From a virus (taxonomy: Duplodnaviria > Caudoviricetes), in the IMG/VR virus record IMGVR_UViG_3300044580_000030, positions 1 through 36,425 of that record: DNA of 36,425 bases; one strand, given 5' to 3'. A model generated the notes under the pieces. It was not told where the DNA came from. It ran no database searches and was given only the letters and a program-made list of their open reading frames with translations. A program made the translations under genes and the position numbers. Of the stretch, positions 2,220 through 22,115 are shown one piece after another (position 1 is the stretch's first letter; the number at the start of each line of letters is the position of its first letter).

Positions 2220-2640
2220 CTACCAACGTTATTTCGATTGCGACAAAATCAATGTTTGAAGCGAACTCGTTCAATTGCATTATTGCCCGCTCGCTCTTAA
2301 TTGTGTACCCGTACGTGCAAGCAAACTCGCCAATCCAGCTAATAGCAATGTCGATAAGGTCGTTTAGTCGTGCGTTTAGCTTCTCTTCGAACGTCTCGGC
2401 AACGCTGGCAAAGCTCGTTGCTTCAAATTTTCTTCCGACAATGATAACACCATTATAAGTGATTGACTGTACAACATTGTTTGCCCGCTCAATTTCTGCG
2501 TTGAAATCTGCGCCCAGCAGTATTTGCCCTTCGGCCAGTGTCATTTTGTTTGCGTGCAGTGACTGGAAGTAATTGCTGCCAAGAATTAACTTTGCTCCTT
2601 TGGCCGTTGCGAATGCCTTTATGTCGTTATAGATTTTCAT
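2212..2640 (-). CDS. Putative tail-completion/structural protein, first gene after a promoter
   Basis: 142-aa ORF downstream of a TAACTTTG box. Confidence 0.45.
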   Translation of the reverse strand: MKIYNDIKAFATAKGAKLILGSNYFQSLHANKMTLAEGQILLGADFNAEIERANNVVQSITYNGVIIVGRKFEATSFASVAETFEEKLNARLNDLIDIAISWIGEFACTYGYTIKSERAIMQLNEFASNIDFVAIEITLVDE

Positions 2641-2655
2641 CGATTATTTTTTTTG

Positions 2656-2663
2656 CAAAGTTA
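2656..2663 (-). promoter_or_regulatory. Bacteroidota sigma -7 box TAACTTTG for the tail operon
   Basis: Matches TAnnTTTG, 15 nt upstream of the ATG at 2640. Confidence 0.7.
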
Positions 2664-2702
2664 CAACGCATGAACATTGTTTACTGTAATTCAATTTTTT
2701 GC

Positions 2703-2723
2703 AGTGCTTTTGCTATGCAATTG
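2703..2723. repeat. 21-bp exact inverted copy of iteron segment 21843-21863
   Basis: agtgcttttgctatgcaattg is the reverse complement of caattgcatagcaaaagcact. Confidence 0.9.
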
Positions 2724-2734
2724 TTATGTACAAT

Positions 2735-3361
2735 TTAATTTTTAAAAAATCCCGCCCACTGTTCCGCAACAGCCTCGGCAATCCCTTTAAAAGTTTTACT
2801 CCGCAATTTCGCCCTTTCTGGCCCAGGTGGCAAATTGTATAATCGTTGCGCCTGTTTTTTTGGTAATTCCTTCCAAATATGCTTTACATTGTTTGTTTCC
2901 TTCAATTTTGGTAATCCTTCAATCCACAAGCAAGTTGCTTTGCTTTCAGGCTCACCAAACATATACGGCTGTATTAATTGGTCGTATTTTTTGCCAATCA
3001 ATTCTAAAGCATATTTGTGCGGTATTGGGTTCTCAATTACTTTCATCTTCATCGGTGCATCCAGCAACTTTTTAAAGAAGGCGCAAGCATCATTTAAGTT
3101 TTGCCACCTTTCTTCATTTCGGCTCCCGTCTTTATTCCAGAGCCAACGTACGCCACTATTTGTAATAAATGTGCAGGGCGGGTGGGCTATCATTGCAATA
3201 TACTTTCCGCTATAAGCCTCAATAATTGCATCGCCTTGTATATGCCATTCGGGATGCCCACCCGAACACGGTTGCAAATCACAGCTATAAGCCTCAATGC
3301 CTCGCTTTCTTAATTCTATTGTTATTGCCTGACTTTCTTCACAGGCTACTAAAACTATCAT
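2735..3361 (-). CDS. Phage DNA cytosine-C5 methyltransferase-like protein
   Basis: VLVACEESQ (motif I variant), YSCD, IAHPPCT catalytic PC motif, IENP, KATCLW. Confidence 0.8.
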   Translation of the reverse strand: MIVLVACEESQAITIELRKRGIEAYSCDLQPCSGGHPEWHIQGDAIIEAYSGKYIAMIAHPPCTFITNSGVRWLWNKDGSRNEERWQNLNDACAFFKKLLDAPMKMKVIENPIPHKYALELIGKKYDQLIQPYMFGEPESKATCLWIEGLPKLKETNNVKHIWKELPKKQAQRLYNLPPGPERAKLRSKTFKGIAEAVAEQWAGFFKN

Positions 3362-3888
3362 TCTTGTCTGCCTTTTTTCATTTTCACCTCTTGCAACCGG
3401 CGCTGGAAGTCATTGATTCGCTTCTGTGCGACAAGCTCCAACATTGCATCGGCATAACGCATCTGTTTAACTTCTTCAATCTTATAACCAAGCGTTATAG
3501 CTATCTGTCTTATTTGCAAGTAAGCGCCAAGCTCCTCAAGCTCTGCAATACCGGCCAATTCGAAGTCTGCATCGTGCGATGACAGCAGCTCATTTTCCAA
3601 CTCAATCGTTCTGCGCACCTGGTCCAACAGGTAGTTGTAGCACTGAATCGCTCTGAACAGCTCTTTGTCACCGATGTCCTTAACCCCGAAAATATCAAAC
3701 CAATACACTGCCCGGTAAAACGATAGCTCTCTTACCTCTGCCTGCAGTTGCTTTACTGTGTCGAACGGCCAATCATCGAACTTGCCAATGCCAAGTGTGT
3801 CCATTGACTGTTTGGCCAAGTCGCTGAAGCGAATAATCGTGTCAACTTCGCTTTTGTCTTCCAATTCAATGTATTCCTTTACCGTCAT
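3358..3888 (-). CDS. Hypothetical protein (possibly tail-assembly-chaperone-like)
   Basis: 176-aa acidic helical ORF, ATGA-coupled on both sides. Confidence 0.4.
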   Translation of the reverse strand: MTVKEYIELEDKSEVDTIIRFSDLAKQSMDTLGIGKFDDWPFDTVKQLQAEVRELSFYRAVYWFDIFGVKDIGDKELFRAIQCYNYLLDQVRRTIELENELLSSHDADFELAGIAELEELGAYLQIRQIAITLGYKIEEVKQMRYADAMLELVAQKRINDFQRRLQEVKMKKGRQE

Positions 3889-5030
3889 AATGCTCGCACT
3901 CCTTTATATGGCCGTCCAATAAGTTTTGTACATGCATAGATGAGCGCATCAACAAGATGGTCATCGCCATCCTTCGGTGTCTCGCTCTTTTTGTCCAACC
4001 AAATGTAACCGTTCAGTTCTCTGGCAAGGTTATAACTGTCATCGGTAACGATTAACTTGTACTGCTGCATTTTTTTCAGAATTTCAACTTTCCGCATCTT
4101 CTCTACCGCAACAACGTTCATTCCTCGAACCCGCAAATCGTAAACAGTCCTTGCACTTGCACTATCGGCAACAATCAATTTGTTCGGCTCTGTGTGCAGA
4201 ACAAGCTTACGAAACAGCATCTCGGTCGAGTTGCCCGATTCAAACAACTTCTCCTCTGCGTAAATTATCTGTTGTTTATGGTCAATAGCTACACGAACAA
4301 GAGCGTCCTGGTCCCGGTAACCAAAGTCAAGGCCATATATGTATGGCAGCGTCTCGTCGAACTGGCCAAAGTCATACTTAAGAATCGTATCCTCGAGCTG
4401 CCCGAACTCTCCCATGCCATAAACCCGATACCAATTTGCCCACTCTGGTTTATTTTTTCTACTTTCAATAAACTCGAATTCGTTTTTAGCAATAAATGGA
4501 TTATCCTTATAGTTACTGCGAATGATTTTGTAATTCGAATCTTTCCCTAAGATATATTCATTTAGCCAAAACTCGGCCGATGGGTTGAAATCTAAGAAAG
4601 TAACTTGCTGCACACGGCTGTAGAATTGCCGGAAGACATCCCAACTTATACGTCGATTACACTCATTGACAAACAGTATATCTGGCCTTAAAGAGTGCGC
4701 TCGTGCCTCGTTGCCCTCAATGCCAAAGAATTCAACACGTGCGTTGTTGATATAATACGTGTGCTCGCTCTTATTCTTTACAGCTCCAACATTGACGTTC
4801 ATCGCTTCCAGTATTTCGTCAAATACCTTCATCGCTCCGCCCTTTAAGTGTGGCAAGGCGTAGGAAGCGATTACGATGTGCTTCTTCTTCTTTGACAACA
4901 ATGCAATTTGCGCAATAAGCTGCAGGATTGAATAAGTTTTACCGCTACCCTGCCCACCTTGATTGATTATTAGCGGATAGCCAGCAAGATAAGCGTCTAA
5001 ATTCTCGTGATATACACGAGTGTATTTCAT
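3885..5030 (-). CDS. terL: Terminase large subunit (PBSX-like)
   Basis: Walker A GGQGSGKT, LFVNEC Walker B, DFNP, YKDNPF, nuclease GLDFG and DHLVDALIY. Confidence 0.93.
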   Translation of the reverse strand: MKYTRVYHENLDAYLAGYPLIINQGGQGSGKTYSILQLIAQIALLSKKKKHIVIASYALPHLKGGAMKVFDEILEAMNVNVGAVKNKSEHTYYINNARVEFFGIEGNEARAHSLRPDILFVNECNRRISWDVFRQFYSRVQQVTFLDFNPSAEFWLNEYILGKDSNYKIIRSNYKDNPFIAKNEFEFIESRKNKPEWANWYRVYGMGEFGQLEDTILKYDFGQFDETLPYIYGLDFGYRDQDALVRVAIDHKQQIIYAEEKLFESGNSTEMLFRKLVLHTEPNKLIVADSASARTVYDLRVRGMNVVAVEKMRKVEILKKMQQYKLIVTDDSYNLARELNGYIWLDKKSETPKDGDDHLVDALIYACTKLIGRPYKGVRAL

Positions 5031-5452
5031 TTTCCTTCAAGTTTTTTGATTTTGTCTGCTTGCTCCTCGTCCTCAACGACAATCTTAGGTACCTGAATTG
5101 TATGCTCCATCTTTGAACGCAGCGCATATTGGTCAGGATAGTTGCGCTCCAGCCACCATGCGGCCGACTGCCAGCTACCGTCTTCAATGATTCGGCGCTT
5201 GCAGATGTCAGCGATTTTATCGTCGCCGATTTCTTCTGCTTTTTTTACGGCGTCAACAAATTCAGGTTTATTGTCAAGCCATTCGGTAAATGTTTCGTAA
5301 AATATGCCTGCCATCTTACAAGCTCGCACCCTTCCTTGCCCTTCAGCAAGCGCAGTAAGTAAGCGAAGTACAACATCTTTGTTATACTTTTTTCTTTCTT
5401 TTTTAACTATATTATTTACAATTTTTTGTAGATTTATGTTTTTTTTAGTCAT
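5027..5452 (-). CDS. Terminase small subunit-like HTH protein
   Basis: RACKMAGI..TFTEW HTH, AAWWLER motif; directly upstream of terL. Confidence 0.75.
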   Translation of the reverse strand: MTKKNINLQKIVNNIVKKERKKYNKDVVLRLLTALAEGQGRVRACKMAGIFYETFTEWLDNKPEFVDAVKKAEEIGDDKIADICKRRIIEDGSWQSAAWWLERNYPDQYALRSKMEHTIQVPKIVVEDEEQADKIKKLEGK

Positions 5453-6369
5453 AAATCATATTTTTCTCTTTTTGGTTCATTAGTAAAAGGAATATCTTCT
5501 TCAAATGCATCCCAATACATCGTGTTTATACGATAATTTGGGATTTTGAGTATTTTTGGCACAAGAAAATTATAATTAATTCTATGATGCAACCTACCGC
5601 CGATCTTTTTTTGCTTTTCTGCATGAATGCATGAAGGTAACTGAATTGGGCAAATTATTGCCTTCGAAAATAGCTTTGTCTCATTGTATATTTCCGTTAA
5701 TCCGCCTTCTGCTGTTGCAGACATCGTTTGGTCTAAATAGATAGCGCCAAATAGACTGCCGGTAAAAAGTCCATCATTTAATATTGTAACGAATTGCGAA
5801 GTATCGTCGTCATGCAATCCTCTCTCACCTCTATAGATGTATTTTACGTTATAAAAAGAACAATTCATAACCTTGTAGTGAATTAATTTGTCAGTAAAAT
5901 TTACGAAAATATCACCTACTTGTGGCAAGCCGAATAAGCCGATATGATATTTTTTTATAAATTCGGCAATCGCATCAAATGCCTTTATGACATCATCGCC
6001 ATTAGCAAGTCTTTCGTAATGTTGATTTGGCCGTATCGCAAATACTTTAGTATCGTCATCCATTACGCAATAAACTTCAATTCCCATTCCTTTTGCGATA
6101 TCGTAGAACATGTTTCTCGCCATTCCAGCTGCTCTTCTCGATGGCGACTTTCGATGTACGAAATCATATCTTCGCCTTGCCTCATTTATATCGAAGATGA
6201 AAAGGTTGAAACCGTTTTTTTTGGCTTTTTCCTTATAATCTTCAATATCTGGCGTTTCGTTATCGATTACAACATGCACTTTTTGCATGTCGTAGCCAAT
6301 TTTATTTAGAAACTTAATAGTTTTCAATTCTTTGGCTCGCTTATACGATGGGATAAAAATATCAATCAT
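5449..6369 (-). CDS. GT-A fold glycosyltransferase (GREB1-like / TET-associated type), putative DNA modification
   Basis: N-terminal IFIPSYKR, ARN, VMDDD (DxD), HDDD, GGLTEIY; next to ParB and terminase. Confidence 0.72.
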   Translation of the reverse strand: MIDIFIPSYKRAKELKTIKFLNKIGYDMQKVHVVIDNETPDIEDYKEKAKKNGFNLFIFDINEARRRYDFVHRKSPSRRAAGMARNMFYDIAKGMGIEVYCVMDDDTKVFAIRPNQHYERLANGDDVIKAFDAIAEFIKKYHIGLFGLPQVGDIFVNFTDKLIHYKVMNCSFYNVKYIYRGERGLHDDDTSQFVTILNDGLFTGSLFGAIYLDQTMSATAEGGLTEIYNETKLFSKAIICPIQLPSCIHAEKQKKIGGRLHHRINYNFLVPKILKIPNYRINTMYWDAFEEDIPFTNEPKREKYDL

Positions 6370-7078
6370 TGCTCAAAATTTTATTTTTAATTTTTAACAA
6401 TTCGTCCTCAATAAAGCCATCAATACCGTTATCTATCAACACGAGTCGTAATCTTTCGATTACTTTCTTTTCTTCTTCCGTGGCATTATAGGCATAATAA
6501 TTTGCAATTGCCTCATAATCAATTTTTACAAACCGTGTCGCTAAAAGTTGAAAGACTTCTTTAATTTCCGAACTTACGTTTGCCGAATTTACGATTTCCA
6601 TTTTTTTGTCGTATTTTTCGGTATTTACGCAATCTTTCAGTCTAAGTGACGGCTTCAATTCTGGCTCGTAGTATATTGATTCGATTTTCAATTCGCTAAG
6701 TAATTCAGTGGCTGTTTTTTTGGGAATATCCACTCCCCACTCCTCCAGCAGCTTATCGTCCCATTCGTTGGCCAATTTCTCCCAATCCCACTCGCCAAAC
6801 GGAACATTATCCTCGATGATGAACCGCTGTTTCTCTTCATCGGTCAGCTCGCTTGCTTTCCGCACCCATTCGTCCGGTACTTCCTTATAACCCAACGACA
6901 GCAGCGCCCTATATCGCATATTACCGCCAAGTATAGTGCCGTCATCATCGATGACAATTGGCCGTAGCGCCATCATCTTCGGGAATTCCTTCACCGATTG
7001 GACAAGTTTTTTGAATTTCTCGTCCTTTATAATTCTCGGGTTGGATGAATTAGGTTTTAATTGATTTAGCCTTATCAT
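6362..7078 (-). CDS. ParB/Srx-like N-terminal domain protein with a helical C-terminal domain
   Basis: LKPNSSNPR, RPIVID, ILGGNMRYRAL, FIIEDN..GEWD; C-terminal IYYEP..DYEAIANYYA..LVLID. Confidence 0.85.
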   Translation of the reverse strand: MIRLNQLKPNSSNPRIIKDEKFKKLVQSVKEFPKMMALRPIVIDDDGTILGGNMRYRALLSLGYKEVPDEWVRKASELTDEEKQRFIIEDNVPFGEWDWEKLANEWDDKLLEEWGVDIPKKTATELLSELKIESIYYEPELKPSLRLKDCVNTEKYDKKMEIVNSANVSSEIKEVFQLLATRFVKIDYEAIANYYAYNATEEEKKVIERLRLVLIDNGIDGFIEDELLKIKNKILSND

Positions 7079-7096
7079 AATAATTTTGTTTTTTTG

Positions 7097-7750
7097 TTAT
7101 AGATTATATTCCTCGCCAATTTCTGCACATAATGTTCTTCCGAAATTATTCCAGTAGGGCGGGCGCACTCGCACAAGCCTTGTGCCTTTGTCATAAGGGA
7201 GGAAGCGCATCGTTTTGCCATCTTTTGTAAGGCTGTAATCATTTTCAATAATATCAACATCTATCGACAATACTCTGCCTTTTCCATATGCAGCCTTTTT
7301 GCCTAAATATCTTATATGTCTGCGCAATATCTGATGTACTCGTTCACGGTCGCCAACTGCATAAGCAACCATCTTTGTTGCAAGTAGCAGTGGTAATGGA
7401 TGATTATACTCTCGATATATACCACTTTGTAGGTTTGGACTTCCCTGAGTGAGTTCAATTTTACTCTGACGAAACTTCTTACGCCAATATTGTAAACTTT
7501 CAGCCACCTCCCCTTCTGGAAATAGAGCGCTTGCGCACCAACCCCAATGTCCGTTAATATGCCATTTGCCTAATGGTAAAGGTACGTCTATTGGTTCGCT
7601 GTTTCTTGTTGGCGGTTCATCTCCTTTTTGCTGATGAAATGGCATAAGAGCCCATGCCATTAAAGCATCCAAATGAATCGGCTCGTAAGGGTCATAATAT
7701 AATCCGGTACCATCTAAATGAAATGTAATCTTTAAATTTTGTAAGCTCAT
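7097..7750 (-). CDS. csf3: Csf3 (Cas5-like RAMP) of type IV CRISPR-Cas
   Basis: IHLDALMAWA, PLPL, WCASALF, YAVGD, Gly-rich loop LGKKAAYGKGRV, C-terminal RFLP..RPPYW. Confidence 0.85.
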   Translation of the reverse strand: MSLQNLKITFHLDGTGLYYDPYEPIHLDALMAWALMPFHQQKGDEPPTRNSEPIDVPLPLGKWHINGHWGWCASALFPEGEVAESLQYWRKKFRQSKIELTQGSPNLQSGIYREYNHPLPLLLATKMVAYAVGDRERVHQILRRHIRYLGKKAAYGKGRVLSIDVDIIENDYSLTKDGKTMRFLPYDKGTRLVRVRPPYWNNFGRTLCAEIGEEYNL

Positions 7751-8478
7751 AGCAATTCTCTTACTTTTTGGTATAATTCAGGATAATTGGTTCTTAACCA
7801 TTGTATTCTTCCATTATTTTCTCCATCGGTAGACAACCATCCCGTGCTTCTGATTGTCTCTGCCGATTGCCCGCAATTTTCCTTCAAATATATAGGATTT
7901 ATAGGCAAATCATACGCATAATGATAAGCCCAAACATCATTTATTGTGAAATCTATTATAGGGCTTATTCTTTCAATTCCGTTCTTATCAATATATTTAC
8001 GTCCTTTATATTGCAAAAGAGCTTTCCTTCCTAATGATTCTTCTGCTCTCAATCCCCAAAACATGCCTGTAAATTTATTTGCTTTAGCCCATTCGTTTGC
8101 TGGATTCTTTTTTATCATCGATACTACTTTATTTTGGGTATACTTGTCTCTCATATGCGGCAAACCAAATTCTTTGCACAATTCCATGTAATCAATTTCG
8201 ATTTGTAATTCAGTGTAATTTAAATTCATCGATTTTACTATGTTTTGCATAAATTGATATGACTCGGGTATCGCATATCCGCTTTTAATGTATAGGACAG
8301 GTATATCCGAAATAAATGAAGTGCATAGGTGTAATACCACATTACTGTCCTTACCTCCAGACCAACTCACATAGTGCGAATAATCGATATTCTTTTCAAT
8401 TATTCGCTTTGCTCCGTCAACTTTCTTTTTAAAAGAGAGTTCCCTGGCCCAAAGTTGGTATTTTAGCTTGTTTTTCAT
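7747..8478 (-). CDS. cysH: CysH-like PAPS-reductase-family (PP-loop) protein
   Basis: VSWSGGKDS PP-loop, GLRAEES..R, SPIIDFTINDVWAY..LPINPIY. Confidence 0.88.
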   Translation of the reverse strand: MKNKLKYQLWARELSFKKKVDGAKRIIEKNIDYSHYVSWSGGKDSNVVLHLCTSFISDIPVLYIKSGYAIPESYQFMQNIVKSMNLNYTELQIEIDYMELCKEFGLPHMRDKYTQNKVVSMIKKNPANEWAKANKFTGMFWGLRAEESLGRKALLQYKGRKYIDKNGIERISPIIDFTINDVWAYHYAYDLPINPIYLKENCGQSAETIRSTGWLSTDGENNGRIQWLRTNYPELYQKVRELL

Positions 8479-9133
8479 TTTTCATCTCCTCCTGACTTGG
8501 TAATAGGTAGCATAATAATTGATACAATGGGCTCTGATACTTGTCTTTAGCCCAAGATTGAAATGTAAGCCATCGATTAATGCCATATTTGTGCATTACC
8601 ATTGGTGGACAATCTAATGACTCCAATATTGTGCGCCCAAATCCTATGTGCAAATATTCGTTAAGCATATTATACCATTCATTTACTTTTTCCTTATCGC
8701 TGGCATTTACAGTAATATTTTCGAATCGCCATAAACCAAATTGTTTATTATTTACTGGGGCATTCAGCGAACCATGCTTCTTGTAACTTGTAGTAATATA
8801 AGCCGTCCATACATCTCTATCTACTCCATTCAAAACAAAACGTCTAAAGTCAGAGCGTTGTAAACGTTCGAATGTTCTTCCGTCGCATAGCCAGCTACTC
8901 GAGCGCTCCCATTTATAAGATAATGCCAGATAAGCATCAATACCAATTCTGTTACTCTCTGGAGCTTTCAAAACATCGATATTCGTAAATTTCTTTCCAA
9001 ACAGCTCAGAGCGATGAATAGTATCCGTCTCTTCTCCAGTGACGCAGCATATCCCAATTTCAGTTTTTTTCGGAATATCAGGACAATCCGGCAAATTGCT
9101 TATTGCTTTGGCTATCAAGTTTACGCTGTGCAT
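8429..9133 (-). CDS. csf1: Csf1 (Cas8-like large subunit) of type IV-B
   Basis: N-terminal CCVTG..FTNIDVLKAPES motif, SYKKHGSLNAPVN; position between csf2 and cysH/csf3. Confidence 0.68.
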   Translation of the reverse strand: MHSVNLIAKAISNLPDCPDIPKKTEIGICCVTGEETDTIHRSELFGKKFTNIDVLKAPESNRIGIDAYLALSYKWERSSSWLCDGRTFERLQRSDFRRFVLNGVDRDVWTAYITTSYKKHGSLNAPVNNKQFGLWRFENITVNASDKEKVNEWYNMLNEYLHIGFGRTILESLDCPPMVMHKYGINRWLTFQSWAKDKYQSPLYQLLCYLLPSQEEMKNEKQAKIPTLGQGTLF

Positions 9134-9395
9134 TTTTAAGCCTCCATTTCTTTATTTTAAGGGCATTCTTCGTCTTGTGCGTTATTATCTGACTGCAATG
9201 ATTTACAGTAAAGTTTTCAAGGAGAAAACATTCCATTTCTGTGTATCTCGGCCGCTTCTTATATCCATGTCGTAATAGCCAATTATTGACTGTACCTGGA
9301 TTCTTATTCAACATCTTTGCTATTTCCCGAATAGACATGTCTCTGAAATTGCTAATCATCAGCGTCCTCTGTGACAATGGTAGTTTGCCGCTCAT
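9078..9395 (-). CDS. Small basic HTH DNA-binding protein inside the csf module
   Basis: MSIREIAKMLNKNPGTVNNWL HTH followed by a second helical unit (RYTEME...KTKNALKIKKWRL). Confidence 0.7.
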   Translation of the reverse strand: MSGKLPLSQRTLMISNFRDMSIREIAKMLNKNPGTVNNWLLRHGYKKRPRYTEMECFLLENFTVNHCSQIITHKTKNALKIKKWRLKNAQRKLDSQSNKQFAGLS

Positions 9396-10605
9396 ATGCT
9401 CCGATTTTTGTTAAGAATAAAATTATTTTTTCCTTATTCTCTGACAGATATTTTTCATATAGCTCAGGAGATGGGCAATTTTCTATATCAATTTTCACTC
9501 TACCAAACCCTCTATTTGAATTTGCTCCTATATAACCCTTCTGTTGCATAATTTGTAAACCTTTCCCCAGTGCCGATAGCTCAAGGTCAGATATATGATT
9601 GTCTACGTCAATACCTCCCGTAAGAGTTACACCTGGCCGTATGCATTCAGTTATTGCTATCATTGACGCATTTTCGCCATCGTCATGTCCTTCATGGTCT
9701 TCACGCCGTGTCAGGAAATGCCATTCCAGTAGTTCGCTTACAGGTTTATCCCCATTGCCCCATTCAATGCATGATGGTCGATAATCTGCCGATTTGAAAC
9801 GACCTGACAAAATGCGATTACCTAAAGCAACACCAAACAATGATAAAGCTGGCAGTGTGTCTCTGAATTGATATATGCCGTCTGCTTTGACCGCTCCATT
9901 GTCACCCATTAATGATGCCAATGCCTTGCCAGCCTTACTATTTTCTTCAAGCGCCCCGCCGGAATATAATGCATGGAAAAACCATAGTGCAACCTTTGGT
10001 TTGTCTCGGCGTGCCGATATGCCGATTGATTTAAGAAAATGGTCTGCCAAAACGTCCCTTAATTGTCCTCTGAATGCATTACCAGAATAATAAGGTAATG
10101 ATACTACACCATTGTCTGTCATTACTTGCATACGCCTGAATAGTGTTGCGTTGCCTGCCTTTGTATCGCCTCCATGAGACAGTGGACTTAATGTAGTTAT
10201 CGTTATGCCAATATCATATTTTGGCTGAGGCTTTGCTATTCCTTTGGTTGGGTTATAAGGCTCAATATCAACCATATCGCATGCCTTTTTCTGTTCCTCC
10301 CATTTCCCAATTGTCGCAATCATACCAGCTATTTTTGGATAAGTCTTTATCCAATTAAGGATAGAGTGTGCATTTTCTCCAGTTATGGTCACTATCATTT
10401 CAGCTCTCATTTCCGGATGCATATCGTCGAAACTCACATCCATTATAGTGCTGAATTTTTCGACAAATGACAATAGCGTTGGCTCGTTCGCAAGTTGAAG
10501 AAATTTGTCGCTTACGAAATCGGACAAATTACGATTAACTTTAATCGAACCGTTTTGTGCGATGTATCTTAATACTCGCATTACTTGATAAAATTGTTCC
10601 TTCAT
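9352..10605 (-). CDS. csf2: Csf2 (Cas7-like RAMP backbone) with a ~125-aa helical N-terminal extension (putative fused Cas11)
   Basis: ITTLSPLSHG, LPYYSGNAFRGQLRD, LYSGG, LSLFG, TRRED, ECIRPG, Gly loop IGANSNRGFGRV. Confidence 0.88.
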   Translation of the reverse strand: MKEQFYQVMRVLRYIAQNGSIKVNRNLSDFVSDKFLQLANEPTLLSFVEKFSTIMDVSFDDMHPEMRAEMIVTITGENAHSILNWIKTYPKIAGMIATIGKWEEQKKACDMVDIEPYNPTKGIAKPQPKYDIGITITTLSPLSHGGDTKAGNATLFRRMQVMTDNGVVSLPYYSGNAFRGQLRDVLADHFLKSIGISARRDKPKVALWFFHALYSGGALEENSKAGKALASLMGDNGAVKADGIYQFRDTLPALSLFGVALGNRILSGRFKSADYRPSCIEWGNGDKPVSELLEWHFLTRREDHEGHDDGENASMIAITECIRPGVTLTGGIDVDNHISDLELSALGKGLQIMQQKGYIGANSNRGFGRVKIDIENCPSPELYEKYLSENKEKIILFLTKIGAYERQTTIVTEDADD

Positions 10606-10619
10606 AGTTGTTTATTTTA

Positions 10620-10919
10620 TTAGTTGTTTTTTCTTGATTTTATTTCTTTGATTATTTTCTGCTCATGCGCCTTGCGCCGCACTTTCTCCAATAAGATGTA
10701 AAGCTCGTTGTTGTTAAGTTCTTTAAGGTTAATCAAGTTAAACACATTCGGGCAATGCTTAACCGACCAAACGATATGCCCGAAATTCCTCATGTTTTTT
10801 ATTCGTTCCCGAAAGCGTTCATCACGAAAGAACCTCGGACGTTTTTCGAGAAACGCAATGACTTCAGCATCGGTCATTTCATCGATGTTGAATTCAAGTT
10901 TTTTCCTACCTGTTTTCAT
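10620..10919 (-). CDS. Hypothetical protein
   Basis: 99-aa ORF immediately upstream of csf2. Confidence 0.6.
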   Translation of the reverse strand: MKTGRKKLEFNIDEMTDAEVIAFLEKRPRFFRDERFRERIKNMRNFGHIVWSVKHCPNVFNLINLKELNNNELYILLEKVRRKAHEQKIIKEIKSRKNN

Positions 10920-11061
10920 GGCTTTTCGATTTTTGGTTTATTTTTTCGATTTTTTTGATAGCAAACCCAGAGTAACCGAGCGCCTTTGCCTTATATTTCT
11001 CTGGCCGCTCGACATTAACCAGCGTATAAATATAGTCGCCTTTAATTATAATTATTTCCAT
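10906..11061 (-). CDS. Small hypothetical protein (51 aa, MEIIIIKGDYIYTLVNVERPEKY...)
   Basis: Read manually: ATG 11061 to TAG 10906, overlapping the next start; not in the ORF track. Confidence 0.5.
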   Translation of the reverse strand: MEIIIIKGDYIYTLVNVERPEKYKAKALGYSGFAIKKIEKINQKSKSHENR

Positions 11062-11065
11062 ACCG

Positions 11066-11073
11066 CAAATTTA
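11066..11073 (-). promoter_or_regulatory. Bacteroidota -7 box TAAATTTG heading the csf/ParB/terminase operon
   Basis: TAnnTTTG match in the intergenic gap. Confidence 0.6.
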
Positions 11074-11088
11074 ATCGTTTTTGTACGA

Positions 11089-11113
11089 AATTTTGTAAAT
11101 CATTTACAAAATT
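11089..11113. promoter_or_regulatory. Perfect 12-bp inverted repeat, operator candidate
   Basis: AATTTTGTAAAT-C-ATTTACAAAATT, lying over the expected -33 region. Confidence 0.6.
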
Positions 11114-11139
11114 AACTGATTTTTACCAAAATCCGCTTA

Positions 11140-11796
11140 TTATTCATACAATTCAAAATGATAATGCCCTCCAGCTTTCCACGAAACAAGTTTCATCTTA
11201 TAATAGGTAAGATACTTGTTAGATTTAATTGCTGAAATAACAAGCTCATTTCCTCCCCATCCTCCAGTGTGAAGCTCGAGCTTCCGTTTCCCTTTGTATT
11301 TCTTGTGAAGAACAAACCCCCATTCGGCCATGTACCAGCCTTCTGGAAGTATTTCACTGACAAACTTCATCAAAGGCAAGCCATCATCTGGCTGGTAATT
11401 CTCAATGAATTGCAACCATTCTTCTGTCGGATAACCGTTTGCGTCCAATAGCGCATCGGGTAAATTTGGGTTTATATTTTCATTTATTTTCTGCCGAAAT
11501 TCGTCAAAACTCCTTACAACGATGTAAGTGTGTCCAAATTCGGTTATTCGTCGTTCAAATTCCTTCTGAAGCTCGGTTTGTTTGTTCCGTCCAACTTTCA
11601 GCTCGATAAACAATACCTTGCCATTGTTAAGGATAGCGATTAGGTCGGACACTCCAGCCGTTACACCTATGCGCTTCAGCTTTACTGCTTCAGCAACGTT
11701 ACGGCTACCTCCGTTCGGAACGGCGAATATTATTCCGAGACGGCTAAGCCTAAACCATCGAACGCATGCTGCCTGTAAGTTGTCTTCTGCTTTCAT
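11140..11796 (-). CDS. VRR-NUC nuclease fused to an uncharacterised C-terminal domain
   Basis: FAVPNGG, GVTAGVSDL, FIELK..Q..Q PD-(D/E)xK motifs; extra ~105 aa (GYPT..LHTGGWGGNE..GGHY). Confidence 0.82.
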   Translation of the reverse strand: MKAEDNLQAACVRWFRLSRLGIIFAVPNGGSRNVAEAVKLKRIGVTAGVSDLIAILNNGKVLFIELKVGRNKQTELQKEFERRITEFGHTYIVVRSFDEFRQKINENINPNLPDALLDANGYPTEEWLQFIENYQPDDGLPLMKFVSEILPEGWYMAEWGFVLHKKYKGKRKLELHTGGWGGNELVISAIKSNKYLTYYKMKLVSWKAGGHYHFELYE

Positions 11797-12223
11797 GGTT
11801 AACTTTTTTTAAGTATCTTTTTGCAATTTCGGAATTTCTTTTTTCTTTCCATCGGCTTGCGCCAATATGCCAAAGTAATGCCCTTTCCTCCAATGTTTTC
11901 GCTCCGTAGTACTCGCAATACAAACGAAACATTTCAAACGATTTTTCAGGGCAAAACCTATCGGATAACGAATAATTGGTCCTGGCAATTCTATTCACAT
12001 CCTTAACAAGGATTGGCCGAATTTGTGCAATTCCAACGTCAAGGCCTGACTTGTGTACGGCCAATGCATTGCCTCCGCTCTCTACCATGCAGATAATTTT
12101 GAAGTGCTCACGAAGTTCGATTAATTGACGTGCAACCGCAAAGTCAATTGTTGTGCGACTTGGAAAATCAGAACTTATCGGCAGCATTACCGTAATTATT
12201 GATAGGATAATTCGCTTAATCAT
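11750..12223 (-). CDS. Lytic transglycosylase (SLT/lysozyme-like) with an N-terminal hydrophobic anchor
   Basis: ICMVESGG catalytic Glu motif, GIAQI, WHIG. Confidence 0.72.
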   Translation of the reverse strand: MIKRIILSIITVMLPISSDFPSRTTIDFAVARQLIELREHFKIICMVESGGNALAVHKSGLDVGIAQIRPILVKDVNRIARTNYSLSDRFCPEKSFEMFRLYCEYYGAKTLEERALLWHIGASRWKEKRNSEIAKRYLKKVNHESRRQLTGSMRSMV

Positions 12224-12225
12224 AT

Positions 12226-12621
12226 TTACGATTTTATAATTTTAACTTCATATCCGTATGGCTTTATTTTTTCGGCATGTTCGGCTATCTCCTGTAAATG
12301 GTAGTTAATCAGTGTCCTTGCTTCATCGCTACCTGCCGGCGGTTGCTTGTATTCGGCAAAAAGACGATAAATTTCATCATAAAATACAGCAATGTTAACA
12401 TACGAACGGCCGATTAATTTGACGCCAACTAAATCCTCATCATCAAACACTTCATCAAACAGCCGCTCCTTGTAATAATCGTTCAGTATTTTGCCGGCCA
12501 GCATACGAATCGAACAGCCGCTTGTATTGTCGGTTAGGATAACTTCTGGCTTCGTATAACCCATCTTCGTTCGCCGGGCTATTTGCGAAATTAGAAACAA
12601 GTAATCTTTTTTCTTCTTCAT
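12226..12621 (-). CDS. Hypothetical protein
   Basis: 131-aa ORF, coupled. Confidence 0.55.
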   Translation of the reverse strand: MKKKKDYLFLISQIARRTKMGYTKPEVILTDNTSGCSIRMLAGKILNDYYKERLFDEVFDDEDLVGVKLIGRSYVNIAVFYDEIYRLFAEYKQPPAGSDEARTLINYHLQEIAEHAEKIKPYGYEVKIIKS

Positions 12622-13190
12622 AAGTATTTGAGTTTAATTATTTTACAATCAATTATTGCATGTTTTGTAAGCGAATACCATTTGCCATCTTTATTAATTG
12701 CAATGTGGTAGTATTGTTTTTTATCCACAACAATCGCAGGGCGCATAGGTTCTATTTTGAAATTTCTTTGCAAACCGAGCATTATGTCAATATTTTCATA
12801 TTTTTGCTTAAAGAAAGAGAAATAATAATTACCCATTCTAATGTAATAAGTATATATCACTTTATTAATTAGCTCCTTAACATTATACGCCTTATCGGCG
12901 CTCATATGGTAATAATCACCAAACAATCGTATATGTGCATTCATATTTCGATAACCTAATGTCAGTGCCGAGCGCTTTGGCTTATTGTCAAGGTATTCGG
13001 CAATCTTTGTTAATGTTAGGCCAAATTTCTCAAATGCAATCTTTGCCGCTACAAGGTTGCAGAATACCGTTTCATGATATCTTCTGCCATGATTATATGA
13101 TTCAGCTAACTCTGCTGCATCGATTACGCAATCAAGCAACATTTTGAATTCTTCTTTTGTCATTTTTGGTTCTATGTTCTTTTTCTTCAT
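12618..13190 (-). CDS. Hypothetical protein (possible HTH: GLTLTKIAEYL)
   Basis: 190-aa ORF downstream of the helicase loader. Confidence 0.5.
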   Translation of the reverse strand: MKKKNIEPKMTKEEFKMLLDCVIDAAELAESYNHGRRYHETVFCNLVAAKIAFEKFGLTLTKIAEYLDNKPKRSALTLGYRNMNAHIRLFGDYYHMSADKAYNVKELINKVIYTYYIRMGNYYFSFFKQKYENIDIMLGLQRNFKIEPMRPAIVVDKKQYYHIAINKDGKWYSLTKHAIIDCKIIKLKYL

Positions 13191-13192
13191 AG

Positions 13193-13858
13193 CTATACTC
13201 TTTTTGATTTCCCATTATATTCGATGATGTTACACATTTCATACAACCTATCAGCAATGCGATCTCCATACATTGCACGTAAGTCAGCCAACGATAAGTT
13301 GGTTGTAAAGTGAGTCATTATCCCGGTAGCACACCAAAGGTTATACCTGCTTGTTATAAGCATAGATAACGGCAATATTTCATTGCCGAAATACATAACT
13401 TTTGCCTGCTCTGCGCCAATATCGTCAATACATATATTTCTTTTACTAATTTGCGATGCGCTAGCGTAGCAATAATTTACAAAGTCATAACCCATTTGCG
13501 CAGCCTCAACGACATCGTATGAATTAATAACCGTAAAATAACGGTCTAATTCGTCATGGCGAAGTATTAACGATAACGCTTGCATTAGCTTCGTTTTTCC
13601 AACACCTGTGTTTCCAATAAGCATTATCCCTTTGTTTGGCTTTACATCTTCATACACATCAACAACTCCACCATATAACCAAATTGCAAGCCTAATAATT
13701 ACTTCTTTGTTGTCAGTTATAACTTCTTTATTGATAACATGTCTTAACGCCAAACATATACCGTCATAGTTGTTATTAACCGCATGTTTACATTCATCGA
13801 TTTTTTCAATTGTTTCGACTTTATTGTTAAGTCTTATTAATTCTGATAATTTTTTCAT
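13193..13858 (-). CDS. DnaC/IstB-like AAA+ ATPase (helicase loader)
   Basis: GNTGVGKT, ICIDDIG, HFTTNL, YGDRIADRLYEMC, GKSKR. Confidence 0.88.
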   Translation of the reverse strand: MKKLSELIRLNNKVETIEKIDECKHAVNNNYDGICLALRHVINKEVITDNKEVIIRLAIWLYGGVVDVYEDVKPNKGIMLIGNTGVGKTKLMQALSLILRHDELDRYFTVINSYDVVEAAQMGYDFVNYCYASASQISKRNICIDDIGAEQAKVMYFGNEILPLSMLITSRYNLWCATGIMTHFTTNLSLADLRAMYGDRIADRLYEMCNIIEYNGKSKRV

Positions 13859-13873
13859 AACTAATTTTTTAGG

Positions 13874-14905
13874 TTAGCATTTGTAATTATGCCCGTATAG
13901 TTCTTTGAACTCGTTCATTGTTTTAACTTCGCCTTTTTTATAAGCTTCATAGAAATCATTCATCATTCTATCGAACTCTTTACTTTTTTCTTCAGCAATT
14001 TTTTTCGCTTCCTCGTTTTCGCGCCGGCGCCGCTCAAGCTCCTCCCTGTCTTTCTTATATTTTTCTTCCATATTGTCAAGATGTATTACTTGGTTTTTAA
14101 CTTGTAATTTTTGTACGGCTTGCCCGTTTTGTTTTGCGCCTGACGAGTAAGCGCCTTCAAGTACTTTGGCAATATTGCGGTCATTCTCGATTGTCCAATC
14201 GAACGTTGCTGTCCAACCTCGATTATTTTTGCCGCAGAGGAAGTCGTTGGAATTGATTTTCGCAAACGCCTCAAAGATTTTTTCCTTCGGCCAATCTTTA
14301 AGCCGTGCTTTGATTTTCCGCTTTCTGCTCTCTGTTAGCTTTTCAACTTTCGGTAAGTTGGTACAAATAGAGTTCCATTGCTCGGCAAACTCTTTGTAGT
14401 TTATGCTGTTGTCGTGGTTGATGTCGATTTTTTCTTCCTGCTGCTCTGGCTGTTTTTCTTCGGTTGGCTCTTTCGGTTGGTCTGTGGTTGGTCCTGGCGA
14501 TTCTGTTTCTGCCGTATCTACCGGTTGCTCTGGTTCTTTCGGTTCGTCTGTCTCGGCTGGTTTTTCTTTCGGTTGCTCTTTGTGTTTCTGCCAGCGCTTG
14601 CGGGCATTGTCGGCCAGCTTACGGCGCTTATCCTGTTGCTCGATTAGCAACTCGCATGATAATACACCGTCCTCAACGAGGAATAAGCCTGAGCTATTGA
14701 CGACAAAGCTCACCATTTCCTCGCTGCACCTGAACATGTAAGACAGTGTTTCGATGTCTGCATCAATTGCATTATCATTATTAGCCAGATGTTCGACTAT
14801 TGCCCAATATAAGCCATAGCCAGCCATGCCATACTTTGCCTCAAGCCGGGCGACTCGATGGTCGCTCCGGCTGTTGCTTCTATGATTAATGAGTAAGCTT
14901 CCCAT
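13874..14905 (-). CDS. Replication initiator (DUF4373/Lin1244-like N-terminus)
   Basis: KYGMAGYGLYWAIVEHL, NARKRW, C-terminal FLCGKNNRGWTATFDW..KVLEGAY; adjacent to the DnaC-like gene. Confidence 0.8.
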   Translation of the reverse strand: MGSLLINHRSNSRSDHRVARLEAKYGMAGYGLYWAIVEHLANNDNAIDADIETLSYMFRCSEEMVSFVVNSSGLFLVEDGVLSCELLIEQQDKRRKLADNARKRWQKHKEQPKEKPAETDEPKEPEQPVDTAETESPGPTTDQPKEPTEEKQPEQQEEKIDINHDNSINYKEFAEQWNSICTNLPKVEKLTESRKRKIKARLKDWPKEKIFEAFAKINSNDFLCGKNNRGWTATFDWTIENDRNIAKVLEGAYSSGAKQNGQAVQKLQVKNQVIHLDNMEEKYKKDREELERRRRENEEAKKIAEEKSKEFDRMMNDFYEAYKKGEVKTMNEFKELYGHNYKC

Positions 14906-15086
14906 TTTTTAGTGCATTTAATTTGTTGAGGAATATTTCGACAAGCTCGTCGATAGAGTTGATTTTGATTACGTCAATCTTTCGATTGTTGTAGAACACT
15001 TTAACGTGTCCAAATTCCTTGTCATACATACAGATGAGTGAATTTTCCTTCTCATCGTGGTAAGAAATTGTTTGATAACGGTTCAT
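14886..15086 (-). CDS. Hypothetical protein
   Basis: 66-aa ORF overlapping the initiator start. Confidence 0.55.
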   Translation of the reverse strand: MNRYQTISYHDEKENSLICMYDKEFGHVKVFYNNRKIDVIKINSIDELVEIFLNKLNALKNGKLTH

Positions 15087-15113
15087 GGCTTTAAATTTTA
15101 CGGTTAAAGTTAA

Positions 15114-15404
15114 TTATTTCTTAGCAAAAACAGTCCCATCTTCGTTTCTTTTTACAATTTTTAGCCCTAATTCCTCAACAAGTGCGTAAAATTCTTCCCG
15201 TTCGACTTGCCGGTAATATATGCCAAACTTTCTATCCTTACGGGTGTGCGAAATTTTGCTGCGGAAGCAAATTTCGTAGCAAGTCAGAACGTTGCTTCCG
15301 TAACGCAAACCGACATAGTAAATGATGCCAAATACATCATTTCTTTCCTTTATTTTCTCAAGGTTCCATTGTCCGAGAACCTTGTTCTTAAAATAGCTAT
15401 CCAT
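15114..15404 (-). CDS. Hypothetical protein
   Basis: 96-aa ORF with an A-rich leader. Confidence 0.55.
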   Translation of the reverse strand: MDSYFKNKVLGQWNLEKIKERNDVFGIIYYVGLRYGSNVLTCYEICFRSKISHTRKDRKFGIYYRQVEREEFYALVEELGLKIVKRNEDGTVFAKK

Positions 15405-15423
15405 TTTGTTTAGTTTTTAATTG

Positions 15424-16137
15424 TTAAAAAAAATCTGGAAGTTCAATCTCTTTGCCTGCATCGGCAAAGGTTACAACGGCCGACGTTTCTGCTTGTATAG
15501 CCTCCATTGCTTCTGCCTCGTCCATGTTGCCATCACTGGCATGTATAACGACAACACGGCGCAGTGTCTTATCGTGCCGGCGTACGAATTCGATAACCTT
15601 ATTCAGCGACAAGTGCGAGCGACTTATCCGCTCTGCAACGTATGCTGGCAGTTTACCGGCCATTACATTCTGGATGAGTTTATCGTGCGTAAAATTACAC
15701 TCAATCATTACGTTTGTAATGCCATCAAACATGTAGTCAACTTTTGAAGTGTCGGTTATGAATACAAGGTTTCCAAATTCCTTGTGAGTGATAGCAAACC
15801 CGTAACATTCGACATCATGCCAGAGTTGGAATGGCAAAACCGAGAAGCTGCCAACCTTAAATTGCTCACCGTCTCTGTAATGTGTATGAGCAATTGTTGG
15901 GTAAGCAGCCAGCGTGTCAGAATTAACGTACATTCTTGCAAAGTCGGCAAAGTCGGTTAGATATCCGACATGGTCAACGTGTCGATGACTTACTATGCAG
16001 CCAGCAATTTTCTTATTGATATGCTTAGCCGCTTTTTTGAAGGGTACACCGGCCTCGATTATCAGCGTTTCGCTGCTTGTTTCAAGCAGGTAGCAGTTCC
16101 CAGAAGAACCGCTACCTATGATTTTCACCTTTGCCAT
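15424..16137 (-). CDS. MBL-fold metallo-hydrolase (YycJ-like, putative exonuclease partner of RecT)
   Basis: GSGSSGNCY, SHRHVDH, HDVE, FITDT, IECN, SHLS, IHAS. Confidence 0.88.
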   Translation of the reverse strand: MAKVKIIGSGSSGNCYLLETSSETLIIEAGVPFKKAAKHINKKIAGCIVSHRHVDHVGYLTDFADFARMYVNSDTLAAYPTIAHTHYRDGEQFKVGSFSVLPFQLWHDVECYGFAITHKEFGNLVFITDTSKVDYMFDGITNVMIECNFTHDKLIQNVMAGKLPAYVAERISRSHLSLNKVIEFVRRHDKTLRRVVVIHASDGNMDEAEAMEAIQAETSAVVTFADAGKEIELPDFF

Positions 16138-16138
16138 A

Positions 16139-17017
16139 TCAGAAGGGAATTTGCTGCTGTTCGATTTTAGGAGTCTTTGGCTCTTTGCTAACCTCTTCTT
16201 TTGTCTCCTGAATTACTTCCTTGTCCATTACTTCTTCTGCTACTGCTTCAGGCTGCGCAGCTTCATTATCGGCATTGGTCAGTTCGATTACTGTTGCCTG
16301 CTCGTTGTTCGGCTCTAATTCAGTGTATTCATCAGCAATTTCCGTAATACCAACCGTAATATCAGAAGCTGCATTGATGATAAGCTTGCAGGCACGGGCA
16401 ATTACTGTTTTCTTTGCCATCTCTTCCGGGAATTTTGTGTGCACTGTTTCGCCTTGCCCTCCAAACGTCTTACCTTGCGCCCAGGCCTGTCTGATTTGCT
16501 TTATGTTCATGACTTCGCAATCAATTCGGCCGTCAACCTCATAGACGGCATATGCACCGATTATGTCAGTGCCCAATGATTCAAGCCGTTGCTCATGCTT
16601 AATAAGCTTCCGGCGGCCGGTTTCATCGATAGCAAACTCGATTTTGTCACCGGCATAAATCACATTTGCCTTTATCCACTTTAGTCCGCATCGCTTGGCT
16701 ACAGTGATAGTGCCGAAATATGAACGCATAAGCTGCAACTTGTTGCCGTAAGCTACGAAGTAACACTGGCGCTTCATCGGCGACAATCCCTGCACTACCA
16801 TGTCGAGTAAGGCATTAGCGACGCTCTCACGAGTGCAAACTTGCAGCACCGGCTGCTTGTTCTTGTCAAGCGTGTCGGTAAGGATAAGTGCAGCAGAACG
16901 AATAGCCGCTTCGGCGTTGTAGTCTGGGTACGTGTATAACCCGCCCGATTTCGCAAGCTCACTAACCCGAGCAATTACAAGCTCGGTGATTTCATTTGTT
17001 TTTGCAATCTTTTCCAT
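16139..17017 (-). CDS. recT: RecT single-strand annealing protein
   Basis: SVANALLDMVVQGLSP..QCYFVAYG, IIGAYA, HTKFPEEMAKKTVI. Confidence 0.92.
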   Translation of the reverse strand: MEKIAKTNEITELVIARVSELAKSGGLYTYPDYNAEAAIRSAALILTDTLDKNKQPVLQVCTRESVANALLDMVVQGLSPMKRQCYFVAYGNKLQLMRSYFGTITVAKRCGLKWIKANVIYAGDKIEFAIDETGRRKLIKHEQRLESLGTDIIGAYAVYEVDGRIDCEVMNIKQIRQAWAQGKTFGGQGETVHTKFPEEMAKKTVIARACKLIINAASDITVGITEIADEYTELEPNNEQATVIELTNADNEAAQPEAVAEEVMDKEVIQETKEEVSKEPKTPKIEQQQIPF

Positions 17018-17042
17018 GATTTTTTGTTTTAAAGTTATAAAA

Positions 17043-18935: not shown

Positions 18936-18976
18936 GGCTGTTTACTATTTTCCGAGTATTGCATCGATACCCGGTA

Positions 18977-19531
18977 TTATTCGTCAATGGCCGGTGCCGC
19001 CTTTCTTGCTGGATAAAGTGGATAAAGGAAATAAAGATTAGAATAAAGATCGCCTTTATATTCTCTAAACAGATGTCGGTTCAGGATAATAAGGTTACCG
19101 TTATGCGTAATGACAACTCGACTGCTACCTATTAACCTTTGTAAGTATAATAGATAGCTTTGGTTGCCCAATTGAGTAACATCTATTTCCTTGGCGAACA
19201 TGTAAGTATCGCTAAACCTGCTATTGCCATAACCGGCGATAATGCCATTATGGACTATTGCAGTGTTTTTGTTTATTCTTATCGGATGGGTATTGTCGAA
19301 ATCAATCCGGCCGTGTGTGGCAACACGGAAGTGCAGGACAATCGTACCGTCAAATTCTTTTCTCAGGTTATAGTATCGCTCTATAACCTTTTCATTTATA
19401 ACATTTTTGAATATATGCAGTCGATTGTCTGCATGCCACATCATACCTGCACCATGTGGATTGCAGCCAGAAGCGAGGGTTAATAATTCCTCGCTAATCG
19501 TTTTATTTTTATTCACAATGATCACACACAT
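18977..19531 (-). CDS. Class II (Ntn) glutamine amidotransferase
   Basis: N-terminal Cys (MC), NPHGAG, HFRVATHG, NTHP, VHNG, SDT. Confidence 0.88.
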   Translation of the reverse strand: MCVIIVNKNKTISEELLTLASGCNPHGAGMMWHADNRLHIFKNVINEKVIERYYNLRKEFDGTIVLHFRVATHGRIDFDNTHPIRINKNTAIVHNGIIAGYGNSRFSDTYMFAKEIDVTQLGNQSYLLYLQRLIGSSRVVITHNGNLIILNRHLFREYKGDLYSNLYFLYPLYPARKAAPAIDE

Positions 19532-20880: not shown

Positions 20881-21198
20881 TTAACCGAAGATATCATCTA
20901 TTGGATATTTCATTATTTCGTACAAATATTCCAGGAATTCATTATAATCTATATAATTATCGTCATCTGCCATGCCATGAATAGTCACGACATGGACAAG
21001 ACTTCTGAGGTATTCGTTTTTTCTTAAATATCTCACTTCAAACTTTTGTTTTTCTTTATCATAATATATTTTCGCCACAACAGGATAATCACTATTATGA
21101 GTATTTACATAATTTAATAATCCTTCAAGCTCATCCTCATTGAACAATGTTTCAATGTCATTTTCAAATTGTGTTAATAATTCTTCTTTTGTTTTCAT
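20881..21198 (-). CDS. Small acidic protein, first early gene
   Basis: 105 aa, about 23 D/E versus 11 K/R by hand count; directly after the early promoter. Confidence 0.7.
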   Translation of the reverse strand: MKTKEELLTQFENDIETLFNEDELEGLLNYVNTHNSDYPVVAKIYYDKEKQKFEVRYLRKNEYLRSLVHVVTIHGMADDDNYIDYNEFLEYLYEIMKYPIDDIFG

Positions 21199-21672: not shown

Positions 21673-21685
21673 TATCAGGCGGTTA
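21673..21685 (+). promoter_or_regulatory. IHF-consensus site (TATCAG-GCGG-TTA)
   Basis: Matches WATCARN4TTR; a second match AATCAA-ATCA-TTA lies on the minus strand at 21759-21771. Confidence 0.4.
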
Positions 21686-22084: not shown

Positions 22085-22089
22085 GAAAC

Positions 22090-22115
22090 AAAAAAGCCGA
22101 ACCTTTCAGCTCGGC
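22090..22115 (-). terminator. Intrinsic terminator ending the late/lysis transcript
   Basis: GCCGAGCT-GAAA-GGTTCGGC-TTTTTT, 6 nt after the endolysin stop. Confidence 0.88.

Follow-up and report, generated by a model that had tools for sequence, protein, structure and literature searches.

An array-less type IV-B-like csf cassette in a clade of tailed phages, with Cas11 fused to Csf2 and an exchangeable partner enzyme

The type IV-B CRISPR (clusters of regularly interspaced short palindromic repeats) systems include the solved Csf complex of Mycobacterium sp. JS623 (PDB 7JHY; PMC7937560), which is made up of Csf1, Csf2, Csf3 and Cas11, is accompanied by a cysH-like gene, has no array, cas6 or dinG, and is carried on a megaplasmid. 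The cysH link of type IV-B is described in published surveys as nearly invariant (PMC7038947). Among viruses, a cysH-like gene together with csf1, csf2 and csf3 has been described in the complete genomes of the Methanoperedens virus Mp_virus_41kb (bioRxiv 2023.08.02.551345) and of the Fuxiviridae (PMC10848311). The former is array-less and has cas11 as a gene of its own, and thus already documents array-less, cysH-bearing IV-B in a complete viral genome, while the Fuxivirus has a mini-array. Type IV-C systems (PDB 11FS; PMC13676074) are mostly array-less and chromosomal, have a Cas10-like HD nuclease, and hold Cas7 and Cas11 as pairs (7:6). A paper of 2026 still calls the role of type IV-B unclear (PMC13676074). 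The present analysis concerns a five-gene csf module in a tailed phage, IMG/VR record IMGVR_UViG_3300044580_000030, the whole 36,425 nucleotides of which are referred to as the window; related loci are designated by L numbers.

The module lies at 7097..10605 as five minus-strand open reading frames (ORFs) in the order csf2, helix-turn-helix (HTH) gene, csf1, cysH-like gene and csf3, with consecutive overlaps of 44, 56, 50 and 4 bases from csf2 to csf3, and takes up 9.6% of the genome. This is the arrangement given by the original prediction, made from the letters alone, which had put the share at about 10% and had called the module type IV-B-like. All six motifs that it named (ITTLSPLSHG, SGNAFRGQLRD, IGANSNRGFG, HLDAL, LGKKAAYGKG and RPPYW) were located, and the profile and structure search that it proposed matched the PADLOC models of Csf2, Csf1 and Csf3 and a type IV Cas7 fold at a Z-score of ~18. 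With Csf2, Csf1, Csf3, a fused Cas11 and a PP-loop CysH-like protein, and with no array, cas6, adaptation or helicase genes found, the module is assigned to type IV-B by every feature testable here. It shares these five components, the lack of array, cas6 and dinG, and the Cas7 fold (Z 18.2) with the JS623 complex. It differs in that Cas11 is fused to Csf2 and not encoded by a separate gene, in its location on a phage, in the gene order csf2-csf1-cysH-csf3, and in belonging to a clade whose partner enzyme is exchangeable; its Csf1 also has a clamp-binding-like tail. The available descriptions of Mp_virus_41kb and the Fuxivirus mention neither a fusion nor an enzyme swap (bioRxiv 2023.08.02.551345, PMC10848311). 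No Cas11-Csf2 fusion, replacement of CysH by a radical S-adenosylmethionine (SAM) enzyme or Csf1 clamp motif was found in the literature searched, which also included PMC10910872, PMC12669027, PMC12839542, PMC9723712 and bioRxiv 2025.01.04.631326, held few subscription papers, and did not extend to supplements, where such variants could be listed. What sets this locus apart within that literature is the fused backbone, the phage clade, the exchangeable enzyme and the natural pairs with and without the module.

The csf2 ORF (9352-10605, minus strand) encodes a fused Cas11-Csf2 protein of 417 residues. Its Csf2 (Cas7) backbone domain (9352..10257, minus strand) matches PADLOC Csf2_0_IV at 1.9e-47, and in the AlphaFold model (predicted local distance difference test, pLDDT, 90) residues 130-400 have the type IV Cas7 fold, with Z-scores of 18.2-18.9 to 7jhy_e (18.2), 8rc3_A and 8rc2_A. 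The first ~115 residues form a separate all-helical domain (model pLDDT 95.6), and residues 1-116 (10258..10605, minus strand) are assigned to Cas11, the small subunit, from profile matches and the helical model. The PADLOC profile Cas11_0_IV is matched at E<=0.1 by 63 of the 80 aligned N-terminal domains, at best with 1.6e-7. The N-terminal domain of this phage alone gave no match to that profile, and neither Foldseek (E<=0.001) nor the protein atlas returned a significant match for the domain model. With the stand-alone Cas11 of nine related loci, the profile of the N-terminal family gives a match at a probability of 91.9 (E 6.8e-7), and with the solved IV-C Cas11c chain 11fs_N one at E 4.9e-5. 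Cas11 had been missed by the original prediction; it has no separate gene here and is present as the N-terminal part of Csf2. The Cas7:Cas11 ratio is 6:5 in the solved IV-B complex (PMC7937560) and 7:6 in the solved IV-C complex (PMC13676074), therefore a 1:1 fusion is structurally sensible and would fit the known stoichiometry. Csf2 proteins of ~500 residues with other N-terminal extensions are found in L056, L058, L066 and L067, where they are possibly separate fusion events.

The Csf2 query found 456 proteins at E<=0.001, and the best 120 each cover at least 94% of the query. There were 136 relatives in IMG/VR (80 kept, 49 of these aligning over almost the whole fused length) and 130 in metagenomes (80 kept), with only 10 in 185,579 species genomes. 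Among 50,697 GenBank phages there was no full-length match and one partial match, and among 72,556 plasmids no full-length match and 29 partial ones. A total of 141 fused-type loci, mostly viral, were reduced to 99 by collapse at 90% Csf2 identity. In a quick Csf2 tree, built without curated IV-A/B/C/D reference sequences, 72 fused rows form one group with a support of 99, the sister of which is made up of viral loci with a separate cas11 and cysH. The Cas11-Csf2 fusion marks a phage clade. One fused operon, at L020 11230-14239, has two csf3 genes.

Contigs of four sequencing runs were aligned over 2600-20400. The listing of sequencing runs showed no RNA dataset as a holder. In one contig of run X2 and one of run X4, both from one study, position 7051 is joined to 10627 through 26 other bases that take the place of 3,575, and exactly the five genes are missing. 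Run X1 carries the module, with 42 differences in 1,723 bases. Since the gain or loss of 7052..10626 covers exactly five protein genes, the cassette holds no RNA gene and moves as protein genes only. In the closest relatives the flanks differ and protein genes abut csf2 and csf3. The X1 contig skips 5453-6724, which holds a glycosyltransferase gene and half of a ParB-like gene, and in three runs the contigs pass over a methylase gene at 2735-3361. These three genes are therefore seen as separate passengers, gained and lost independently of the cassette. The downstream ParB-like and TET-associated glycosyltransferase genes were accordingly rejected as parts of the module, there being also three ORFs between in L110.

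The enzyme census was based on 69 distinct loci with csf2, csf1 and csf3, after 30 of the 99 had been excluded as incomplete. An operon enzyme is present in 68, and the remaining locus is undetermined at a contig end. A CysH-like gene alone is found in 44 loci, a CysH-like gene with IbrA/IbrB in 10, IbrA/IbrB alone in five, a B12-binding radical-SAM gene alone in six and a DUF4417-like gene alone in three; IbrA/IbrB are the names we take to apply to a PAPS_reduct-DUF3440 gene with a ParB_N gene. The short CysH-like gene is missing, with another enzyme instead, in 14 of the 69, although the contigs of L012 and L152 stop soon after csf3 and a CysH-like gene further downstream is possible there. 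In the six complete radical-SAM loci, 11-21 kb of sequence is free of PAPS-family genes. On the Csf2 tree the radical-SAM rows (nine, three of them from partial loci) are scattered, with seven changes, and a single clade is rejected (approximately unbiased test, p 1.3e-4). The DUF4417-like slot gene encodes ~335 residues with a cysteine-rich N-terminus (L093 529-1530, L152 995-2014, L169 2648-3667); 25 of its 26 homologues give weak DUF4417 matches, and the protein has no solved relative. L093, with 66% Csf2 identity, is the nearest locus outside the closest group of this phage. Across 47 loci, the three core genes co-vary in pairwise identity with a rho of 0.61-0.69, against 0.18-0.35 for the CysH-like gene. 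Genes for GNAT acetyltransferases are found within the operons of L014, L124, L128, L158 and L162, and DNA methylase genes within those of L014 and L082. On this comparison the partner enzyme has been repeatedly exchanged among unrelated families within the clade. The constant part is best described as a scaffold that binds nucleic acid and has neither nuclease nor helicase, and the variable part as a predicted group-transfer-type enzyme.

The CysH-like enzyme of this phage (243 residues; 7747..8478, minus strand; Pfam PAPS_reduct 1.1e-25) is a predicted ATP alpha-hydrolase or adenylating PP-loop protein. The PP-loop residues S40, G42, K43 and S45 are invariant in 50 sequences, and no alignment column of these exceeds 40% cysteine. 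A conserved catalytic cysteine is the criterion for a true PAPS reductase or a Dnd/Ssp phosphorothioation enzyme (PMC8175902), and both identities were rejected; the NCBIfam cysH and DndC models score the protein far under their cut-offs. The protein matches the description of CasCysH, with a retained PP-loop, no conserved cysteine and a proposed adenylating role (PMC8175902).

Csf3 (Cas5; 217 residues; 7097..7750, minus strand) matches PADLOC Csf3_0_IV at 3.1e-37 and NCBIfam cas5_csf3 at 4.2e-27. The NCBIfam scores of Csf2 (44.8 bits) and Csf3 (95.2 bits) are below the curated cut-offs of 130 and 140. The reduced large subunit Csf1 (234 residues; 8429..9133, minus strand) matches PADLOC Csf1_0_IV at 1e-9, has no match to a solved structure by sequence, and has no HD or Cas10 match in Pfam or PADLOC. 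Longer, fused forms of Csf1 were not found among 7,995 candidates, which is weak evidence. Type IV-C was rejected on these features, its large subunit being a Cas10-like HD nuclease (PMC13676074) and the one here a 234-residue Csf1 with no nuclease match. Comparison with L091 and L110 gives nonsynonymous values (pN) of 0.07-0.12 and synonymous values (pS) of 0.62-0.85 for the four core genes, which are under purifying selection. The small HTH protein (9078..9395, minus strand; 105 residues from the first ATG, likely start 9359; Pfam Sigma70_r4_2 1.6e-6) has a full-length relative only in L092, and the slot in L091 and L110 holds a different protein in which only ~20 C-terminal residues are shared. 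The gene is a variable passenger outside the core. It was rejected as a candidate for Cas11 on the basis of its Sigma70_r4_2 match, its variable slot and the Cas11 found fused to Csf2.

Clamp-binding peptides at protein C-termini have the consensus Q-L-x-L-F (PMC4549789), and Csf1 of this phage ends in a five-residue motif resembling it (residues 230-234). A strict pattern, fixed in advance of any look at the tails, is matched by 10 of 86 Csf1, 1 of 97 Csf2 and 7 of 682 other proteins, and by none of the 69 Csf3 or 77 PAPS-family proteins. A looser pattern, devised once the data were known, is matched by 21 of 86 Csf1 compared with 17 of 554, and by 16 of the 23 Csf1 with long tails. Together with the overlap between the partner enzymes and ParB-linked phage genes, the motif would point to new DNA as the substrate. 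Phage ParB modules (ParB with a T-dioxygenase, PMC13229309; ParB-methylase and ParB-DUF4417 fusions, bioRxiv 2025.10.10.680097) likewise consist of an adaptor and interchangeable enzymes, and DUF4417 and ParB/IbrB are common to them and to the Csf clade. The scaffolds are not homologous, therefore the resemblance would be one of working only. Partners of phage ParB include DUF4417 and DNA methylases (bioRxiv 2025.10.10.680097), and the activation, by one phage ParB, of a DNA-modifying enzyme on dsDNA (PMC13229309) is a precedent for an adaptor role.

It is proposed, with a probability of about 45%, that the type IV-B-type scaffold delivers a modifying enzyme to phage DNA just after its replication, for chemical marking. 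The proposal is built on observed features, namely the set of parts, the fusion of Cas11 to Csf2, the cassette made up of protein genes only, the enzyme exchange and the clamp-binding-like Csf1 tail, and a carrier for a modifying enzyme is the simplest reading because the scaffold is constant and the enzyme variable. On RNA the fused protein would polymerise into a filament in which each Cas7 has one Cas11 and of which Csf3 and Csf1 are the caps, the RNA coming from outside the cassette in the form of host CRISPR RNA (crRNA) or ordinary transcripts. Through the Csf1 tail the complex may then attach to the host's sliding clamp that remains on new DNA. The scaffold would open this DNA, or hold it, for the enzyme to work on. 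With the CysH-like enzyme the chemistry would be adenylation of a base or phosphate and addition of a group, while in other phages radical-SAM or other chemistry would take the same position. Such a mark may shield the progeny DNA from host nucleases until packaging. Positioning of the enzyme on nucleic acid was one of three ideas in the original prediction, and it is the one favoured by the comparative data on enzyme presence and swapped families.

Several points weigh against this proposal. An RNA filament is not obviously needed for a simple marking job. The Csf1 motif of this phage deviates from Q-L-x-L-F at position 2, the motif is missing in 76 of 86 Csf1 by the strict pattern and 65 of 86 by the looser one, and the p-values of 2e-6 and 2e-10 overstate the enrichment because the loci are related. 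The low correlation of the CysH-like gene may partly be saturation, the median identity being 24%. The module is often at the replication-to-packaging junction, a collecting point of many accessory genes, so that the methylases, GNATs and IbrA/IbrB found inserted may be no more than bystanders, and CysH-like and IbrA/IbrB genes occur together in 10 loci. PP-loop and B12-radical-SAM enzymes also have tRNA, proteins and small molecules as substrates. Finally, the array of L120 and the cas6 of L044, described below, point to guide use.

No CRISPR array was found in this genome by repeat finders and two scripts, with the circular junction included, and this array-finder run on the circularised genome is the one that the original prediction had called for. 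Shuffled sequences gave no array with the array script, which did detect arrays in L059, L062 and L078. Cas1, Cas2, Cas3, Cas6 and DinG have no match in Pfam or PHROGs among the 47 minus-strand proteins scanned (out of 184 ORFs of at least 50 residues). Within these searches the predicted absence of an array, cas6, cas1/2, cas3 and dinG held, and type IV-A was rejected, no DinG helicase, Csf5/Cas6 or array being found. In L059, L062 and L078, viral loci with a separate cas11, multi-repeat CRISPR arrays lie 5.6-9 kb from csf2. The repeats of L120, L041, L139 and L132 were looked at one by one, with further repeat-script matches in L002, L014, L034, L036, L045 and L082. The repeats of L041 and L139 were rejected as tandem repeats, and in L132 the gene before a two-repeat array reads like what is presumably a TnpB/Cas12f-type gene end, for which reason the array was not counted for the module. 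An array plausibly belonging to the module is found in one of the 99 fused loci, L120, where a degenerate five-repeat CRISPR-like array (595-840) lies ~300 bases before the fused csf2 and is the best candidate for a native guide. In L044 a type I-E cas6 (13649-14161) is found directly behind the cysH-like gene of the fused operon, with no array in 21 kb.

These loci bear on the possibility that the complex loads host crRNAs in trans and binds matching dsDNA with the enzyme as effector, either against competing elements or as a shield for phage sites targeted by immunity. IV-C complexes that have no array take up crRNA from distant ones and bind dsDNA (PMC13676074), IV-C Cas7c and Cas11c (PDB 11FS) are the nearest solved chains by sequence to both domains of the fused protein, and the Fuxivirus has its IV-B mini-array (PMC10848311). 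The strong conservation of Csf3 and Csf1 is also consistent with guide loading. However, co-expressed crRNA made up ~0.12% of the reads and was not enriched in the JS623 IV-B complex (PMC7937560), hosts show a negative correlation of IV-B with other CRISPR systems (PMC7038947), and a plausible array of its own is confined to that single locus. Loading in trans is considered unlikely.

The same scaffold could instead act on RNA (a bound transcript, tRNA or crRNA) or on protein, or the enzyme could make a signalling nucleotide. Heterogeneous RNA supports assembly of the IV-B filament (PMC7937560), and AMPylation of substrates or synthesis of second messengers has been put forward for CasCysH (PMC8175902, PMC13676074). 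The CysH-like profile also matches the tRNA-modifying PP-loop enzymes TtuA and TilS. The clamp-binding-like Csf1 tails point to DNA, however, and the swapped partners overlap the ParB-linked phage gene pool, DNA methylases included; a substrate of this kind is considered quite unlikely. Improbable as a whole is a combination in which the fused filament would load host anti-phage crRNAs and travel with the sliding clamp along newly made phage DNA, its plug-in chemistry (adenylation, radical methylation or other) marking exactly the sites attacked by the host.

An anti-CRISPR sponge, another idea of the original prediction, would have the complex sequester host crRNAs and so disarm host immunity. 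It is a hypothesis in print (PMC8175902, bioRxiv 2023.08.02.551345, PMC7038947, PMC7937560), and the fusion would yield a self-contained filament unit. The presence of cas1 in five of the 10 genomes that hold a fused locus would suit it, but the other five, which are incomplete, gave no match, and the survey was uninformative. The one complex tested had no crRNA preference (PMC7937560). A sponge also leaves the near-constant enzyme and its replacement by unrelated enzymes unexplained, and is thought highly doubtful.

A GC-rich noncoding stretch of ~370 bases on the minus strand, between ORFs 20881-21198 and 19509-20498 and upstream of the latter, has several hairpins, folds more stably than its shuffles (z -4.2) and is a candidate structured RNA or leader. 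It has no Rfam match, no relatives were found, and a single pattern match was rejected as an unrelated high-GC phage; Rfam gave no match at E<=1 in the whole genome, and a promoter scan gave a result at chance level. The third idea of the original prediction, a non-CRISPR guide RNA encoded elsewhere in the phage, could draw on this stretch but is very improbable, as such an RNA cannot belong to a unit that is gained and lost without noncoding DNA and whose flanks differ in the closest relatives, the stretch is 10 kb from the cassette with nothing linking the two, and 12 related loci have no Rfam RNAs besides two tRNAs.

The window is a complete tailed phage of 36.4 kb, circularly permuted. An identical 55-base repeat is found at both contig ends (class, direct terminal repeats) and the completeness rating is 100%, in keeping with the earlier view that the genome looks complete. 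The terminase, portal, head protease, tape measure, RecT, DnaC-like loader and initiator genes identified with Pfam and PHROGs are on the minus strand throughout, with replication and lysis genes on one side of the Csf module and terminase genes on the other. The ParB-like and TET-associated glycosyltransferase genes (5449-7078) are immediately before the terminase genes, with no dioxygenase match among the scanned genes, and the DNA methyltransferase gene at 2735-3361 is cleanly missing from relatives. A glutamine amidotransferase-like gene adjoins a phiEco32-type COOH-NH2 ligase gene at 18977-20498. Near-palindromic repeats with an 11-base period form three clusters at 21684-22106, in a large noncoding region. 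An inverted copy lies at 2699-2727, upstream of the gene at 2212-2640 and about half the circle away, and is retained and lengthened in relatives. The repeats look like a protein-binding site array at helical pitch. They were rejected as a CRISPR array, having no spacers and recurring at 2699-2727 and in the packaging region of a relative.

The locus offers a handle on type IV-B function, being a compact four-protein system with a fixed Cas7:Cas11 ratio for which natural phage pairs differing by exactly this cassette exist. With unrelated enzymes in the same slot, the predicted readout is a chemical modification of a mass that would vary from one enzyme to another. Should an RNA guide direct the targeting, this would be a natural programmable nucleic-acid-modifying complex.

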